Assembly (NCBI GenBank): GCA_937899245.1
Contig: CALDKB010000049.1
Span: 133,101-197,100 of the forward strand
DNA from: an uncultured Bacteroidales bacterium
GTDB taxonomy: Bacteria > Bacteroidota > Bacteroidia > Bacteroidales > ML635J-15
Direction of reading: 5' to 3'
DNA: 64,000 bases
Made by a program: the position numbers and the translations under genes. Of the stretch, positions 28,623 through 37,554 are shown one piece after another. The notes under the pieces were generated by a model, which was not told where the DNA came from, ran no database searches, and worked only from the letters and a program-made list of their open reading frames with translations. How positions within the stretch are numbered: position 1 is the first letter of the stretch; each line of letters opens with the position of its first letter.

Positions 28623-30239
<1,617 letters not shown>

Positions 30240-30242
30240 TTT

Positions 30243-32183
30243 ATGGATAAAAAAACGATAATTGGCTTTCTGCTGATAACTGTCCTGCTAATCGGATACA
30301 TGTTTCTTTCGCGTCCAAGCAAGGAGGAAATTGCTGAACGTCAAAGAATTCAGGATTCAATTTCACTTGCCCAGATGGCAGAGGCAGAAGAAAAGGCAAA
30401 GGCAGCTGCAGAACTCATGAAGCAAGAAACGGCTTCAACCGATTCCACAGAAGTTGTTGCCCTCACTGCAGAACAGCAAGACTCTATTAACCAGATTAAA
30501 CTTAAAAACGAACACGGAATTTTTGCCAACGCCGCTACTGGCGAAAACAAATACACGGTTGTTGAGAACGACAAGATGATCATCACTTTCCTCAACCGTG
30601 GAGGTAAAATCTATTCCGTCGAACTGAAGGACTACAAGACATTCAACCAAGAACCTCTTGTGCTATTTGAAAACGGAGAAAACTCTATTTTCGGTATCAC
30701 TTTGACTGCGAACAAAAAGCCGTTGGTAACCAACAACATGTATTTTGAACCATTGGTTGACGGCAAGGCATTTTCTGGAGATACCATTAAGGTTGGAGAA
30801 AAAGGTCTGAAGTTTGGAATGCGCATGTGTACTAACGATAATGCTAACAAGTACATAGAGTATGCGTACAATATCAGACAGGCCGACTACATGTTGGATT
30901 TCAGTCTCAACATAGTTGGACTTGCAGAAGAAATCAAGGATAACACCAACACCAAGATGGAATGGGTTGTTGATATGCAGGCGCTCGAAAGAGGTCGTGA
31001 CTGGGAATCGAACAACACCACGATCTTCATGCGAATGGATGACGAAGAGATTGAAAATCTTAGCGAGGTGAAGGATGCCGACAATTACGAGACAAAGGGC
31101 AAGGCACAGTGGATTGCCTACAAGCAGCAATTCTTCTCTTCGATCCTGATTTCAAACGACAGCGCTATTGCCGATCCTACAATTTCGCTGATAAAACTTG
31201 ATGAACAGGAACATCCGAACACATTGAAGACTTTCAAGTCGGAATTCTTCCTCGACTTCACCGAAGGCAAGAATGTAAAAAAAGATTTCCGTTTCTATTT
31301 TGGTCCTAACAAATATTCAGACTTGAAGGACTACGACATGGACATGGAAAAGGTCATTCCTCTTGGCTGGGGAATTTTCGGCTGGGTGAACAAATATGCC
31401 ATCATTCCAATGTTCAACCTTTTGGGACGAGGAATTACAAATTATGGTATCATTATATTGATAATGACTATAATAATCAAGCTTGTACTTTCTCCGTTGA
31501 CATACAAGTCGTATATGTCGACAGCGAAGATGAGAGTTTTGAAGCCACAGCTCGATGCCCTAGCAGAAAAATATCCTAAGGGCAAGGAAATGGAACGCCA
31601 GCAGGCACAGATGAGTTTGTACCAGCGTGCAGGTGTAAGTCCTATGGGCGGATGCTTGCCGTTGTTGCTGCAGTTCCCAATCCTTATTGCAATGTTCCGC
31701 TTCTTCCCTGCTTCTATCGAATTGCGCCAGCAGCCATTCCTTTGGGCTACAGACCTTTCTTCGTATGATGCAATTGTTGAGTGGAACGCTCATATTCCAT
31801 TGATTTCGTCGTTGTATGGTAACCATGTCAGCTTATTTGCCTTGTTGATGGCGATATCAATGCTGATCCAGCAGAAGATTACAAGCACCCAGAATGCTGG
31901 CAACTCAATGCCTGGTATGAAGTTCATGATGTATTTCATGCCTATTATGATGTTGTTCTGGTTCAACAAGTATTCTTCTGGTTTGAGCTACTACTATTTA
32001 CTTGCCAATATCTTCAGTATCCTTCAGACTTGGATAATTCAGAAGTTCGTTGTAAAGGAGGACAAACTGTTAGCTCAAATGGAAGCCAACAAGAACAAGC
32101 CAAAGAAAAAGTCGAAGTTCATGCAACGTCTTGAAGCTGCACAAAAAAAGCAACAGGAACAGTTGAAGAACAGTAAGAGATAA
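30243..32183 (+). CDS. yidC: Membrane protein insertase YidC (long Bacteroidota form)
   Basis: N-terminal TM segment, a large periplasmic domain, and the 60-kDa IMP core (LKPQLDALAEKY...MSLYQRAGVSPMGGCLPLLLQFPILIAMF). Confidence 0.95.
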   Translation: MDKKTIIGFLLITVLLIGYMFLSRPSKEEIAERQRIQDSISLAQMAEAEEKAKAAAELMKQETASTDSTEVVALTAEQQDSINQIKLKNEHGIFANAATGENKYTVVENDKMIITFLNRGGKIYSVELKDYKTFNQEPLVLFENGENSIFGITLTANKKPLVTNNMYFEPLVDGKAFSGDTIKVGEKGLKFGMRMCTNDNANKYIEYAYNIRQADYMLDFSLNIVGLAEEIKDNTNTKMEWVVDMQALERGRDWESNNTTIFMRMDDEEIENLSEVKDADNYETKGKAQWIAYKQQFFSSILISNDSAIADPTISLIKLDEQEHPNTLKTFKSEFFLDFTEGKNVKKDFRFYFGPNKYSDLKDYDMDMEKVIPLGWGIFGWVNKYAIIPMFNLLGRGITNYGIIILIMTIIIKLVLSPLTYKSYMSTAKMRVLKPQLDALAEKYPKGKEMERQQAQMSLYQRAGVSPMGGCLPLLLQFPILIAMFRFFPASIELRQQPFLWATDLSSYDAIVEWNAHIPLISSLYGNHVSLFALLMAISMLIQQKITSTQNAGNSMPGMKFMMYFMPIMMLFWFNKYSSGLSYYYLLANIFSILQTWIIQKFVVKEDKLLAQMEANKNKPKKKSKFMQRLEAAQKKQQEQLKNSKR

Positions 32184-32216
32184 AAAAAGAGCCGATGAAA
32201 GTCGGCTCTTTTTTTG
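32184..32216 (+). terminator. Bidirectional rho-independent terminator shared by yidC (+) and the type IIG-like gene (-)
   Basis: A 7-bp stem GAGCCGA (32189-32195) / TCGGCTC (32202-32208), flanked by an A7 run upstream and a T7 run downstream. Confidence 0.8.
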
Positions 32217-32296
32217 TTGCTCGCCGTCATTCCTAAAAGCAATTCGAACCAACAAAGAAAATAAGTTCGTTTGTCTAGAATGACAATGTAAAGATT

Positions 32297-34759
32297 CTAT
32301 TTCAAGAACCCATATTCGTAAACCTTCGGCTCGATTTTCTTGGCGAGGGATTTCAGTGTTAGTCGCAGATTTGCATTTAGTTCGTTGTATTTTTCGTCGG
32401 TGCTAGTGCTGTTCATCTTGCCCTTGTCGTTGCGACCCTGGAAATATTCGCGGATGTCGTAGAGTGAAGCGTTGGGATTGGCATCGGGTTGTGAATGATA
32501 ATATTTCCATAATTCGCGACCGGCATCGAAAACCGCTTGCGCCTCAGCCGAAAATACCATCGGCTCGGTTGGAACGAACGACTCCGTTTCGCTTGCAAAT
32601 AACTCTGTGTTAGTGTCTTGCGCCTCACTTCTACACTTTCCACGCATAAAGTCGGTCATAAAGTGCGACTCGAATTTCTCCTTCGCTTCCACCTCGCTTT
32701 CGGTAAACGGAATCCAATGGTTAGTGCCGTATTTTGATTGAATATTATTGTTGAACAATGTCCAGCACAAACAATCAGAATGGAATTCATTGTCTGTTTT
32801 CCAACCATCATTGGGATATAAAAATTGGTCGCGGTCGTTAAGCCAAGTAGCAGAAAAACAATGGACAACAAAACTATATATTGCTATTTGACATAAGTTG
32901 CCTAATGCGACATAAGAACCTCGAGGATTTGTTACATTTGATTTGTCATTGATAATGTAGTTATATTTACTTTGCTGAAAATCACAGCCTCTAACTGTCA
33001 TATAACCAATGAATTTATCTTTCCTTCGCGATTCGATAATCCAATCAGTTATTGTTTTTAATCCATTAGTGTTAAATATTCTTTTTGTGCCTATTTTCGT
33101 CGAGTTATCATCGATTACATCACAAACAATTTCATTAAACGAATCGGATTGATTTAAATTCCATATGAAAAATCCGATTGGGAACGATCCCTTTACGTTA
33201 TCAAACGTATATGATGGAACAATAAATGATTTTTCTAATCTTGCAAGAAAAATCTCTCTAAACTCTTTGAAATTAGATGCTTGTAGAATTTTTAATTTAG
33301 AAAACTCAGCAAGTAAACAATTTGGAATTTCCTTGTAAATGCGAATAAAAAATTGAGCAAAAAGTTCTCGGCCAGCAATGCCAATTTGAGAAAGATACTT
33401 TTCATATGTTTTTTGAACTACTGCGACATCATTTTTATGCTCTCCAGTACCAGTTATTTTTTTTACATTACCTGCCTCCGCATACGGCGGATTAATGTAA
33501 ATCACTAATTTTCTTCGCTTTGTATCGTCAGCAATTATCTTTTGCAATTCGTCGGGAAGCTTCGAAAAAGCGTCGTTTAGAAAATCGAACTGAAACACGT
33601 GAGATTCAAGCAGATTGGCGCCATTCTTAATTCGTTCGTGCATAACGTCAACATCCTGCTGGTCGAGAGTCGATGCCCAAATGTTGTACTTGTTTGTCAG
33701 TCCATTTAGCAAATTTCCAGTTCCCGCACAGCAATCCCACACATAATAATCTTCCTGCCAGTTGTCGCCAAGAACGTCGGCAATGTATTGCTGCGACTTT
33801 TCTACCCAAATCTGCGGTGTGAAGAATGCCCCTTTTCTTTCGCGAACGTCCTGTGGTACAAGCAAATCCAAGCGTTCGGTTATGTAGTCCCAATCTTCTT
33901 TTTGTGGTGGTCGCTTGTAGCGCTTCCAGAAATCGGCATATTTTTCAAGCCCATTTTTGCGGAATCCAAATTCGTAGGCAACGTCAAAACCCATGGCGTC
34001 CTTGCGGTTCAGTCGGTATGGCTTGCGAGAATTTGCATTGAAGGTAACATAAAAATCATCATAAACCGATTTGTCATCGCTGATGTCGGCAGTTCCGTTG
34101 TCATCAACATTCAATTCGGCAATGAAAAAGTCACGGTCGTAGATGCTGTAGGTCTTTTTCAGCAGGTCCCAGTTGGTGTCGATGAAAGGCATTATTTCGC
34201 TACGCCACTTCTGATAAATGAAAATGAAGTTGTTTCTGTCGATTTGCGTTGAGAGGAGATTTGAGTTAATGTCGAGATTGAAGTTGTTTTTAATAAAACT
34301 CTGTAACTCAAATTTATGCGTATCGAAATAATACGTAAATATTTTGTTTTGATTAATGGAATTTCGTACAGTTTCTATGCTTTTTGCATCTACGGCCGAC
34401 GGAGTTTGCGTCCAGTTGAAATCGTTTACGTTGAAGACAGGCAGAACGTAATGATACTCGACGAAAGCTATTTTTTCGGTATCGAAGCAGCCGACGAATC
34501 GTGGCGGAATCATGTTTTTGGCATCCTGGCGAATAGTAATCAGCAGTTGTGCCAGCATTTTGTAGATATCGGTTGGTTGCTGCTTTGCTTCCGCCCAGAG
34601 CAAATATTCGTCATCGAATTGAATTTCAGACTGCTTACGCAGAATTTTAACGGCAAAATCTATACGTCCAATAATATTGGTGCAGTCGAATTTTGGAAAC
34701 CAGTCGGCAGCGACTTTCAGTTTCAGCGATTCCTCGCGGATGTTGGTATCGTAGGCCAT
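32297..34759 (-). CDS. Single-polypeptide type IIG-like restriction-modification enzyme: N-terminal PD-(D/E)xK-like region, gamma-class N6-adenine DNA methyltransferase, C-terminal putative recognition domain
   Basis: N-terminus GRIDFAV...x22...LLWAEAKQ (a D...ExK pattern). MTase motifs in gamma order: KGAFFTPQIW (X), VWDCCAGTGNLL (I), LVIYINPPYAEAG (IV). About 280 further aa have no recognised catalytic motif. No separate R or S gene is adjacent. Confidence 0.68.
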   Translation of the reverse strand: MAYDTNIREESLKLKVAADWFPKFDCTNIIGRIDFAVKILRKQSEIQFDDEYLLWAEAKQQPTDIYKMLAQLLITIRQDAKNMIPPRFVGCFDTEKIAFVEYHYVLPVFNVNDFNWTQTPSAVDAKSIETVRNSINQNKIFTYYFDTHKFELQSFIKNNFNLDINSNLLSTQIDRNNFIFIYQKWRSEIMPFIDTNWDLLKKTYSIYDRDFFIAELNVDDNGTADISDDKSVYDDFYVTFNANSRKPYRLNRKDAMGFDVAYEFGFRKNGLEKYADFWKRYKRPPQKEDWDYITERLDLLVPQDVRERKGAFFTPQIWVEKSQQYIADVLGDNWQEDYYVWDCCAGTGNLLNGLTNKYNIWASTLDQQDVDVMHERIKNGANLLESHVFQFDFLNDAFSKLPDELQKIIADDTKRRKLVIYINPPYAEAGNVKKITGTGEHKNDVAVVQKTYEKYLSQIGIAGRELFAQFFIRIYKEIPNCLLAEFSKLKILQASNFKEFREIFLARLEKSFIVPSYTFDNVKGSFPIGFFIWNLNQSDSFNEIVCDVIDDNSTKIGTKRIFNTNGLKTITDWIIESRRKDKFIGYMTVRGCDFQQSKYNYIINDKSNVTNPRGSYVALGNLCQIAIYSFVVHCFSATWLNDRDQFLYPNDGWKTDNEFHSDCLCWTLFNNNIQSKYGTNHWIPFTESEVEAKEKFESHFMTDFMRGKCRSEAQDTNTELFASETESFVPTEPMVFSAEAQAVFDAGRELWKYYHSQPDANPNASLYDIREYFQGRNDKGKMNSTSTDEKYNELNANLRLTLKSLAKKIEPKVYEYGFLK

Positions 34760-34807
34760 AGTCCGATGGTATTAGTTTCGCTATCAGACACTTGGCAACC
34801 GGAAATA

Positions 34808-35080
34808 AAAAAGGCGCGGCCTCTTCTACTCACATTCACGGGAAGCCTGAGAAGAAACCCGCTGCTCCCAATAGATTCAGCTCACGCCTATGCGCGAGCA
34901 TCAACAAATATTGAGTGCAATGCGGTCACTCAGACCACCGTTAGATTATTCCGATTCTCAAGAAATCGTTTCTCAGGCTTTTTCTTGAAATGCTTTTCGC
35001 CGGAGCGTCGAGCACGAATGTGAATAATAGCTAATGCGTTATTTTATAATATTTTACGTTCTAAACATTTTGTTTAAATG
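34808..35080 (-). ncRNA. Candidate structured 5' leader or small RNA upstream of the type IIG-like gene (class unknown)
   Basis: The region contains nested complementary segments, an inner hairpin that favours the minus strand, a weak terminator-like hairpin and a promoter box. Nested segments: 34830-34837 pairs with 35016-35023 (8 bp) and encloses 34843-34853 pairing with 34970-34980 (11 bp). The inner 8-bp hairpin at 34880-34899 has G-U on the minus strand but A-C on the plus strand. The terminator-like hairpin at 34807-34825 has a U6 tail only in the minus sense. A TACATTTG box lies at 35087-35094. The ends are approximate. Confidence 0.35.
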
Positions 35081-35086
35081 TTAATG

Positions 35087-35094
35087 CAAATGTA
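35087..35094 (-). promoter_or_regulatory. -7 promoter box TACATTTG (minus strand) upstream of the candidate leader RNA and type IIG-like gene
   Basis: Exact TAnnTTTG match on the minus strand, about 330 nt upstream of ATG 34759. Confidence 0.4.
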
Positions 35095-35159
35095 TATAAA
35101 AAATGATGGTTGGCAAAATCTCCCTTATGAAAAAGATACAGATTGTTATGAATAAGGAG

Positions 35160-35226
35160 ATTCCGGACAGTTGAGCATTACAACGCTCCCCGTGCCGTAT
35201 CGCGTGTATGCTCTAACTTCCGGAAT
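35160..35226. repeat. 67-nt imperfect inverted repeat (long hairpin) in the divergent intergenic region
   Basis: ATTCCGGA (35160-35167) pairs with TCCGGAAT (35219-35226), and GAGCAT (35173-35178) with ATGCTC (35208-35213). An inner ACGC/GCGT pair is also present. The interior is GC-rich. Confidence 0.5.
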
Positions 35227-35289
35227 GACGGTGCGCTGTGTTTTCTTGATTGTCTTAAAAACATTATTTTCAAACACGTAAAAAAGCAG

Positions 35290-36198: not shown

Positions 36199-36300
36199 AC
36201 GGCGGTACGGCTAACCCGCTAACCGGCTGACCAGCGTATTCCAATTAATATAATTTTGTTTTATACCCGACCCTTCGACTAACGCTCAGGGTGCGGAACC

Positions 36301-37554
36301 TTACCCGCCGAAATCGTCGAATGCAATCATCTCCGGAGGAACTCCATAAGAATCAAGCATCTTGGTTACGGCAGCTGTCATCATTGGCGGACCGCAGAGA
36401 TAATACTCTATTTCTTCTGGTTCCTGATGGTTCTTAAGGTAGTTGTCCTCGATAACCTTGTGGATGAAGCCAATATAACCATCCCAATTGTCTTCGGGCT
36501 TAGGTTCGGACAGAGCTATATTAAACGAGAAGTTCGGGTATTCTGCTTCTATTTGCTTAAAATCAGACTCATAGAATATTTCTCGTTTTGATCTAGCTCC
36601 ATACCAGAATGAAACTTTGCGTGAGGTCTTAAGTGTTTTGAACAGGTGGAAGATATGCGATCTCATTGGAGCCATGCCAGCGCCACCACCAATAAACATG
36701 ATTTCACGTTCAGTATCCTTTATGTGGAATTCTCCATAAGGACCCGAAATCATAACCTTGTCGCCCGGCTTGCGTGAGAACAAGAATGACGAGCAAACAC
36801 CTGGATTTACGTTCATGAAAGTACCGGCGCTCCTGTCCCACGGCGGAGTCGCAATACGAATATTTAGCATAACCATATTGCTCTCGGCTGGATGGTTGGC
36901 CATTGAATATGCGCGGAATGTTGGCTCCGGATTATTCATTTTCAACTTCCAGATTCCCAGAGTGTCCCAGTCTCCCTTGAACTCGTCGTCGACATCAATA
37001 TCTTTTGAATAATCGACAGAGACCTGCGGAACGTCTATCTGTATGTATGATCCAGACTTGAAGTTAAGCGTCTCTCCTTCAGGCAACTTAACAACAAATT
37101 CCTTAATGAATGTAGCAACATTGCGATTCGACACAACTTCGCATTCCATTTTCTTTATTCCCATTATGTCTTCGGGAATAACAAGCTTCATGTCGTTGCG
37201 GACTTTCACCTGACACGCAAGTCGCCAGAAATTTTGCTGCTCCTTTCGAGTGAAAAAGCCGGTTTCTGTCGGTAGAATACCATTCCCGCCCTCGACAACA
37301 CGGCATTTGCACATTCCGCAACTTCCGCCGCCACCGCAGGCCGAAGGAAGATGAATGTTATGCTCCTTTAGTGTTAGCATCAACGTGTTACCTGTGTCTA
37401 CCTCAAGTGTGTCTTTATTGTTGATAGTTATTTTAACTTTCGATTGTGGAGTCAATCTTTTCTTGGCGATAAGCAGAATTGCAACCAAGACAACCATAAC
37501 GGTTAGGAATACCGCAATGGCACTGAACAGTATAATTGATTGGAACAACAGCAT
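36301..37554 (-). CDS. nqrF: Na+-translocating NADH-quinone reductase subunit F
   Basis: N-terminal TM segment, a 2Fe-2S ferredoxin motif CGGGGSCGMCKC, an FAD-binding RAYSMAN motif and the NAD-binding GGGAGMAPMRSH. Confidence 0.95.
   Translation of the reverse strand: MLLFQSIILFSAIAVFLTVMVVLVAILLIAKKRLTPQSKVKITINNKDTLEVDTGNTLMLTLKEHNIHLPSACGGGGSCGMCKCRVVEGGNGILPTETGFFTRKEQQNFWRLACQVKVRNDMKLVIPEDIMGIKKMECEVVSNRNVATFIKEFVVKLPEGETLNFKSGSYIQIDVPQVSVDYSKDIDVDDEFKGDWDTLGIWKLKMNNPEPTFRAYSMANHPAESNMVMLNIRIATPPWDRSAGTFMNVNPGVCSSFLFSRKPGDKVMISGPYGEFHIKDTEREIMFIGGGAGMAPMRSHIFHLFKTLKTSRKVSFWYGARSKREIFYESDFKQIEAEYPNFSFNIALSEPKPEDNWDGYIGFIHKVIEDNYLKNHQEPEEIEYYLCGPPMMTAAVTKMLDSYGVPPEMIAFDDFGG

Follow-up and report, generated by a model that had tools for sequence, protein, structure and literature searches.

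In this study, we analysed a stretch of 64,000 nt (the window) from contig CALDKB010000049.1 of an uncultured Bacteroidales bacterium, in which a solitary gene for a protein of 820 amino acids (aa) lies between yidC and a gene for an EamA/DMT transporter. We read this locus, with a probability of roughly 60%, as a self-contained Type IIG/IIL-like restriction-modification (R-M) cassette of a new family, the expression of which is governed by an RNA leader. An earlier account drawn from the letters of the window, hereafter the sequence-only reading, had described the gene as solitary and had treated the region upstream of it as plain spacer. The first description was confirmed, the open reading frame (ORF) occupying 32297..34759 of the reverse strand with no R, S, M or C partner gene within the 64-kb window; the second has to be given up, as that region holds a structured leader RNA, the part of the locus with the greatest novelty. 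The gene and the parts of its product are arranged as follows, MTase standing for methyltransferase and pLDDT for the predicted local distance difference test:

32297..34759, reverse strand: ORF with ATG start, 820 aa, made up of a nuclease-like domain, an arm, a gamma-class MTase, a variable module and a conserved helical C-terminal domain
34430..34759, reverse strand: putative PD-(D/E)xK endonuclease domain; E9, D34, E57, K59 and Q71 invariant, models with pLDDT 85-89
33860..34429, reverse strand: mixed alpha/beta connector ('arm'), aa 111-300, from the nuclease-like domain to the MTase; from models, no significant fold match
33200..33859, reverse strand: gamma-class N6-adenine MTase core by predicted fold, aa 301-520; GAFFTP, DCCAGTG, NPPY and Foldseek matches
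32840..33199, reverse strand: hypervariable, AT-rich and beta-rich module, aa 521-640, presumed target-recognition domain (TRD); identity drop, allele exchange and GC content
32300..32839, reverse strand: conserved, mostly helical C-terminal domain, aa 641-820 (NHWIPFTE, YDIRxYFQGR, PKVYEYGFL); alignment and model

The D-x22-ExK pattern and the MTase motifs named by the sequence-only reading were found exactly where it had placed them, with D34 at 34658-34660, E57 at 34589-34591 and K59 at 34583-34585, followed in the order X-I-IV by GAFFTP (aa 310-315), DCCAGTGNLL (aa 342-351) and NPPY (aa 423-426, 33482-33493). Across 32 full-length homologs, down to 30% identity, D34, K59, D342, G346 and N423-P424-P425 never change, while E57 and Y426 are nearly invariant. 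An AlphaFold2 model calculated from the alignment reached a mean pLDDT of 85, and a Foldseek comparison with the PDB returned CamA and M.BseCI at E ~1e-9 over 360-420 columns as well as LlaBIII, DrdV and MmeI at E ~1e-8. By its predicted fold, the central part belongs to the gamma-class N6-adenine DNA MTases, as had been proposed from the motifs.

For the N-terminal part, a separate model of aa 1-300 (pLDDT 89) shows a helix at 9-20, strands at 35-39 and 52-58, a helix at 65-79 and strands at 88-92 and 96-101, in which D34 opens one strand and E57-x-K59 closes the next. As modelled, this placement is the canonical arrangement of a PD-(D/E)xK core, and the strand order is nearly the same as in the nuclease domain of MmeI (PMC2731913). 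Among 28 N-terminal domains from several phyla, E9, K13, D34-F35, W55-A56-E57, K59, Q71-L72, T75 and P85-P86 are invariant, and domains which keep E9, D34, E57, K59 and Q71 share just 37-44% identity with that of the window protein. Invariance of D/E/K together with E9 and Q71 across such divergent N-termini is the pattern expected of an active site. Judging from the motif and the alpha-beta-beta-beta-alpha-beta-beta strand order, the N-terminal domain is probably a nuclease, and sub-threshold fold matches of aa 1-300 comprise MGME1 and RecU, both PD-(D/E)xK nucleases, and DrdV.

Downstream of the MTase core, sliding identity to close homologs falls to 20-47% at aa ~521-640, between flanks of 80-90%. 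The AT-rich segment noticed previously is present as a dip in GC content to 0.28-0.35 over 32750-33500, compared with 0.43-0.48 at the gene ends; it spans aa ~420-670 and thus includes this poorly conserved part. Pairwise comparisons over N-terminal, MTase, variable and C-terminal parts gave identities of 34/88/99/98% for the homologs L138 and L086 and of 96/79/38/83% for L005 and L141. On L223, a contig of the same species, 66 of the 86 mismatches to the window fall inside 33050-33450, with 0-2 per 200 nt elsewhere, and we therefore conclude that a second allele of the variable module segregates in this species. Three paralogs at L084 are 80-96% identical N-terminally and 41-43% in the variable module, D/E/K and NPPY being kept in all of them. 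The protein is thus a recombination mosaic with an exchangeable module, which is swapped even within one species. This module is presumed to be the DNA-recognition domain: the NHWIPFTE motif and the helical C-terminal domain come after it, and the TRD of MmeI also comes after the MTase and ends at a short aromatic-Pro motif, after which conserved helices are found (PMC2731913). Of the exchangeable recognition module that the sequence-only reading had expected, the exchange is hence directly visible from the identity drop, the mosaics and the L223 allele, while recognition keeps the status of a presumption.

In the mechanism we propose, the variable module (aa ~521-640) and the gamma-class MTase core would recognise a short DNA site, an adenine of which would be methylated so that host DNA is marked as self, and the N-terminal D34/E57/K59 domain, carried by the aa 111-300 arm, would cut unmethylated foreign DNA near the site. 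Specificity would change by recombinational replacement of the variable module; among restriction enzymes, the single-chain R-M type is the easiest to re-target.

The gene is flanked by yidC, pyrG and a TonB-dependent receptor gene on one side and by the EamA/DMT transporter gene and the nqrF-A operon on the other. In a sister genome (L232), EamA follows yidC directly at 675 nt and the family gene is missing; its EamA is 97% identical to that of the window, the flanks show 80-84% nucleotide identity and the nqr operon is syntenic. L232 3-2261 aligns with window 30006-32249 and L232 2325-2436 with window 35117-35231, so that homology stops at 32249 and restarts at 35117, with 63 nt in L232 instead of the insert. 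The insert is therefore 32250-35116, and the filled-site/empty-site pair defines the mobile unit cleanly. The synteny comparison which the sequence-only reading had recommended thereby bears out its description of the gene as inserted. Two features delimit this unit:

32250..35116, 2,867 nt: inserted cassette of promoter box, leader RNA, gene and 47-nt 3' tail, without counterpart in L232
32188..32209, no strand assigned: bidirectional hairpin with an A-run before and a T-run after it; from sequence, also in L232 beside yidC

All strains with an identical YidC or EamA carry the gene, and the empty site is found only in the sister species. In other samples, contigs of this species match the window at ~99% identity, and in two samples contigs end inside the gene. 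No target-site duplication or terminal inverted repeat was seen by eye at the cassette ends, where no systematic search was made, and the neighbourhood comparison associated no transposase or integrase with the cassette. The stretch 32250-35116 is a self-contained, horizontally mobile cassette. The hairpin at 32188-32209, located 88 nt past the stop codon of the gene and outside the insert, is the terminator of the host yidC, since it is present at the empty site in L232 too. The idea that the gene shares the yidC terminator therefore holds for the identity of the hairpin, and the cassette probably uses it as well.

Upstream of the gene, 563 nt separate its ATG from the next gene, and ~283 of them are conserved at nucleotide level. 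The elements of this region are:

34760..35042, reverse strand: structured leader RNA, 283 nt directly before the ATG; conservation, covariation and folding
35013-35024 with 34829-34840, reverse strand: P1, long-range closing helix, 9-12 bp, six sequence variants
34970-34978 with 34845-34853, reverse strand: P2, second long-range helix, 8-9 bp, five variants
34963-34968 with 34952-34957, reverse strand: P2a hairpin
34909-34915 with 34867-34873, reverse strand: P4, hypervariable stem that encloses P5, 7-14 bp, ~14 variants
34892-34899 with 34880-34887, reverse strand: P5, conserved hairpin
34858-34861 with 34839-34842, reverse strand: possible pseudoknot or alternative helix
34806..34828, reverse strand: terminator-like hairpin with U-run, directly adjoining the P1 3' strand on its 3' side; covariation alignment and arm table
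34761..34789, reverse strand: hairpin P8, separated from the ATG by 1-6 nt, conserved across leader copies
35087..35094, reverse strand: TACATTTG, a match to TAnnTTTG, 44 nt upstream of the conserved block

The leader is conserved upstream of homologs in unrelated contexts, with indels that are not multiples of three. By nhmmer and a covariance model it was found at 15 distinct loci, all within the sub-clade of the window protein, on the strand of the gene and ending at the ATG, with orientation and distance to the ATG fixed at 15 of 15. Searches with nhmmer and covariance model R1 found no copy beyond this sub-clade in ~1.8 Mb of loci; L052 and L079 were rejected as leader copies, their matches being weak (E 0.03-0.13) and that of L052 lying inside coding sequence. 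The TAnnTTTG box, which we take to be the -7 promoter element of Bacteroides/Bacteroidota, is perfect upstream of the leader in seven of the eight aligned loci, L010 being the exception, and its position indicates a 5' untranslated region (UTR) of ~320 nt. Promoter box and leader both reside within the inserted segment, and the RNA is therefore part of the mobile unit. At L010 (10001-10495, metagenome-assembled genome (MAG) SUWW01000017) we additionally noted an in-frame stop within the first 165 codons beside an intact leader, for which a pseudogene or a sequencing error is possible.

Folding the sequences independently with RNAfold returned the same architecture in 11 of 12 cases, and the variants of P1, P2 and P4 are complementary throughout. 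In an Infernal alignment of 14 sequences, 96.1% of the cells are paired, compared with 83.7% after shuffling and 37-51% with the partners slid, and both sides have changed in 22 of the 46 pairs (75 cells), values none of which is reached by any of 500 shuffles, counted, it must be held against them, on an alignment that was fitted to the model and leans towards structure. Single-sequence folds and the raw arm table, however, show these helices too. P1 is fully paired (100%), and seven of its 11 pairs covary. For P4, a shuffle control in which G-U was allowed gave a background of 6.1 +/- 1.3 bp compared with 10.1 observed, 5% of the shuffles reaching >=9 bp; since this background is high, we rely on the formal count of 22 of 46 pairs. 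Frequent G-U pairs fix the strand of the leader, and the window copy folds with a z-score of -3.6. A helix ACGGG/CCCGU, represented in L138 by AAGGC/GCCUU, crosses P2 and is either a pseudoknot or an alternative structure. Taken together, the leader RNA structure is very probably real. Rfam 15 gave no gathering-score match in the whole window and none for the leader at E<=10 (window and L005 copies), and the leader is a previously undescribed RNA without an Rfam family.

The P1-closed junction, the terminator-like hairpin and the start-proximal hairpin together make up the layout of an attenuator or riboswitch. In the sub-clade of the window protein, transcription would run from a Bacteroidota-type promoter through the ~280-nt leader with its terminator-like and start-abutting hairpins. 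On balance we lean slightly towards a leader that acts in cis on expression, in which case it would most likely set the amount of full-length translatable mRNA, via attenuation or start-codon masking. On paper, the 5' block can pair with the 5' arm of P8; both are almost invariant, so that this pairing carries no statistical support. A P4 that mirrors the specificity module of the protein was considered and rejected, because the variable modules of L138 and L086 are 99% identical while their P4 arms differ, and r = -0.15. The variability of P4 looks like drift under a pairing constraint.

A stronger version, in which the leader would gate a restriction enzyme as a genuine sensor or partner, be it as a riboswitch tying nuclease-methylase expression to a metabolite or as an RNA that silences the enzyme by binding to it, is possible and, in our estimate, rather doubtful. 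The classical means of control for R-M genes are C-proteins, antisense RNAs and phase variation and, to our knowledge, not riboswitches, and we found no description in the literature of a structured RNA leader controlling an R-M gene. If the leader were a riboswitch, sensing of AdoMet (S-adenosylmethionine) or of its by-products would be sensible, as it would prevent self-restriction when methylation lags. Were the sensor or partner reading true, this would be the first R-M enzyme gated by an RNA, and the mobile defence cassette would carry a new class of RNA. Control of an R-M gene by such a leader bears on the long-standing question of how a single-chain nuclease-methylase can enter a new host without killing it.

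Several observations weigh against our overall reading. Enzyme activity is predicted from sequence and model, and the protein is by sequence a member of no curated R-M or defence family. For aa 1-300, the Foldseek comparison with the PDB was not significant (best E 0.5), the best BFVD match is an uncharacterised viral protein (E 1.4e-3) and the profile of the N-terminal domain matches nothing among PDB sequences. The N-terminal nuclease of the sequence-only reading is thus backed by D/E/K conservation in distant homologs, while fold and profile searches returned no significant nuclease match. The Foldseek alignments with DrdV and MmeI span 760-830 columns, yet the whole-chain template-modelling (TM) score is ~0.25; in the model, the domain order is similar to that of DrdV and MmeI and the domain packing is not superposable. 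The terminator-like stem of the leader is weak, with 2-3 G-C pairs, and was not flagged by a consensus terminator scan. Finally, the leader is confined to one sub-clade, and L140, a close homolog (66% identical), is without it, as are other subfamilies; the enzyme as such therefore does not depend on the leader.

Of the competing explanations, the one that survives best, though we regard it as unlikely, treats the leader as a trans-acting RNA partner comparable to a type III antitoxin or to RCd22, where abundant terminated transcripts would bind the enzyme and silence its nuclease until infection or loss of the cassette. RCd22, an abiF-motif RNA, neutralises a neighbouring defence toxin (PMC12373285). 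The succession of promoter, structured RNA, terminator-like hairpin and potentially toxic nuclease gene fits such an arrangement, as does the joint travel of RNA and gene in one cassette. However, the leader lacks the tandem repeats typical of type III antitoxins, its terminator is weak, L140 and whole subfamilies do without the RNA, and the hypervariable P4 tracks no protein module. We therefore retain the cis-acting leader.

Less probable again is that the protein is an orphan regulatory DNA adenine MTase with an N-terminal domain for DNA binding or oligomerisation and no active nuclease. Such a protein would agree with the top fold matches, CamA and M.BseCI, which are orphan or stand-alone MTases, with a nuclease fold left unconfirmed by fold and profile searches and with the many phage relatives that comprise the MTase-plus-variable part only, aa ~270-675; variable recognition modules are, moreover, also found in phase-variable regulatory MTases. 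Against it stands the invariance of E9, D34, E57, K59 and Q71 at 37-44% N-terminal identity. The sequence-only reading had named two findings that would overturn its own proposal, D/E/K residues that are not conserved among homologs and homologs with a housekeeping distribution as orphan MTases; neither was encountered, the residues being conserved in the 32 homologs and 28 N-terminal domains. Conserved presence and synteny, as in a housekeeping or orphan MTase, were replaced by the empty L232 site, differing contexts and patchy spread: the distribution is sporadic and shaped by horizontal transfer, and not that of a housekeeping gene. An orphan MTase is also at odds with tandem multi-allele arrays, which we observed as two to three paralogs at L084 (9989-17669), L021 (299-4807) and L067 (9956-14129). 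These paralogs differ mainly in the variable module; those of L084 lie ~65 nt apart, and one L021 copy is without the N-terminal D/E/K region. Other subfamilies, furthermore, occur in defence-type operons. A gene for GmrSD (Type IV restriction) lies 4-5 nt upstream of the family gene at seven loci (L097, L105, L106, L107, L116, L127 and L128) and a T5orf172-DUF4268 gene upstream at four (L094, L100, L108 and L109), in rumen subfamilies with 46-50% identity, and these pairings look like two-gene defence operons. We thus keep the R-M enzyme as the preferred reading of the protein.

By far the least probable is a DNA element (a recombination or transposition end, or operator palindromes) whose inverted-repeat maintenance would generate the covariation: the region does mark one end of the mobile cassette, the palindrome before the ATG (GTGATTGATAG...CTATCAATCAC) might serve as an operator and transcription of the leader is a prediction from sequence, but the many conserved G-U pairs (helices 1, 3, 5 and 6) would turn into A-C mismatches if the opposite strand or a cruciform were formed, the nested long-range P1 and P2 enclose 110-170 nt, a span usual for RNA but not for protein-binding sites, the cassette has no associated transposase or integrase, and orientation and ATG distance are the same at all 15 loci.

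The family to which the protein belongs is large and lacks a model in Pfam, NCBIfam, PADLOC or PHROGs. The 820-aa protein, MTase core included, gave no match in Pfam (E<=1), NCBIfam, PADLOC (0) or PHROGs, and searches of PDB sequences with the protein (phmmer), the family profile or an N-terminal-only profile found no relative; matches of the family profile to Rab GTPases in the PDB (E 0.003 and weaker) map to the variable region, look like chance and were rejected. Among 32 homologs, N6_Mtase matches from Pfam are weak and limited to six, and an Eco57I match occurs once, at E 0.13. A word-indexed search yielded at least 8000 candidates, of which every named member is a 'hypothetical protein'. 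An exhaustive search of representatives at 50% identity gave 1945 proteins at E<=1e-3, of which 457 pass E<=1e-30, and at least 486 relatives are among the 600 pattern matches listed (one genome per species). The best 80, at ~50% identity, are spread over Bacteroidota, Kiritimatiellia, Treponema, Brachyspira, Proteobacteria, Planctomycetota, Chloroflexota and other groups, and in some MAGs there are several family copies. IMG/VR contigs contain ~10 full-length relatives, next to the shorter phage proteins mentioned above, and relatives on RefSeq plasmids are labelled 'hypothetical protein' as well. On small Acinetobacter and Fluviibacter plasmids (9-16 kb), relatives of ~31% identity align from aa 54 on. 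A plasmid of Helicobacter pylori (NZ_KM583817.1, 3210-6097) has a 42%-identical full-length match in three pieces, which is unannotated and may be frameshifted or phase-variable. Some members (P0103, P0116 and P0121, ~1050 aa) contain Pfam LPD3 (PF18798, 'large polyvalent protein-associated domain 3') inside the variable module, at aa ~585-682.

Across 137 loci there is no conserved neighbour, only subfamily-specific ones, and the closest relatives of the window protein are located in quite different contexts. RhuM lies downstream of the gene in L097, L104, L113 and L140. Conserved upstream sequence in other subfamilies turned out to be protein-coding (GmrSD or T5orf172-DUF4268). A BREX/DISARM-type system with a PglX-like MTase was rejected on the basis of 0 PADLOC matches and the lack of a conserved neighbour. 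In L140 (1-8475), the homolog, RhuM and a SocA/Panacea-domain gene are enclosed by a pair of Peptidase_M24 genes in what looks like a small island, and in L141 an IS200-type Y1 transposase has inserted just downstream of the family gene, at a site otherwise identical to L002.

Some observations concern host sequence around the cassette. Upstream of EamA, window 35117-35231 is a 115-nt non-coding block outside the cassette, 84% identical in L232 (2325-2436), with nested inverted repeats (ATCTCCCTTAT...ATAAGGAGAT; GAGCAT...ATGCTC; CCGGA...TCCGG) and no Rfam match at E<=10. Of the yidC-EamA spacer in L232, 382 nt (2437-2818) are missing in the window, which has 39 nt (35232-35270) there instead. 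Between EamA and nqrF (36202-36500), ~81 nt of the window correspond to ~10 nt in other strains of this species, and the 218 nt after this stretch are 91% identical to these strains, compared with ~99% elsewhere.

The leader and its gene can finally be compared with known systems. With riboswitches and attenuators, the leader has in common a P1-closed multi-helix junction, a hairpin with U-run at the P1 3' strand, highly conserved joining regions, covarying stems and a 5' UTR of ~320 nt; it differs in being known upstream of one gene family only, in allowing no ligand to be deduced and in its weak terminator. RCd22/AbiF and type III toxin-antitoxin (TA) RNAs resemble it as structured RNAs directly upstream, on the same strand and co-inherited with a defence or toxin gene (PMC12373285). 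The leader departs from them by its unrelated sequence and fold, by the lack of repeats and by a partner that is an R-M-type enzyme and not an RNase-like toxin.

On the protein side, the best fold matches, CamA, M.BseCI and the MTase-TRD of the Type ISP enzyme LlaBIII, cover 350-450 columns over the MTase core and part of the next domain. They are without the N-terminal D/ExK domain and arm and share 13-15% sequence identity, and LlaBIII has an extra helicase-like motor. The window protein also resembles the Type IIL enzymes MmeI and DrdV, for which domain order was taken from the description of the MmeI family (PMC2731913). Differences are considerable: the family profile misses 5HR4 and 7LO5 at E<=10, and no MmeI match was found in Pfam. 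The window protein is ~100-200 aa shorter than MmeI, with a D-to-ExK spacing of 22 residues compared with 9 and a mixed alpha/beta connector compared with a mainly helical one, and MmeI-type genes are not reported to have a structured RNA leader. Assignment to the MmeI family sensu stricto, for which whole-length similarity at E<1e-20 or a Pfam MmeI/Eco57I match is required (PMC2731913), was rejected, as the protein shows neither. The definition of that family further includes cleavage at a fixed distance that depends on AdoMet, methylation of a single strand and a requirement for two sites. The MmeI/Eco57I-like enzyme proposed by the sequence-only reading thus holds for the domain order, which is that of MmeI, but not for sequence membership in either family. 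As in MmeI and DrdV, a single chain carries an N-terminal D...ExK domain, an arm, a gamma-class m6A MTase and then the presumed recognition module, and as in MmeI there follow a short aromatic-Pro motif (WIPF here, FPFP in MmeI) and conserved C-terminal helices, with no partner MTase and no conserved neighbours. A gamma-class MTase in the same chain, a variable module C-terminal to it and independence of partner or flanking genes, all of which characterise Type IIG/IIL enzymes, were thus found here, and the family gives the impression of a new, compact branch of single-chain R-M enzymes.

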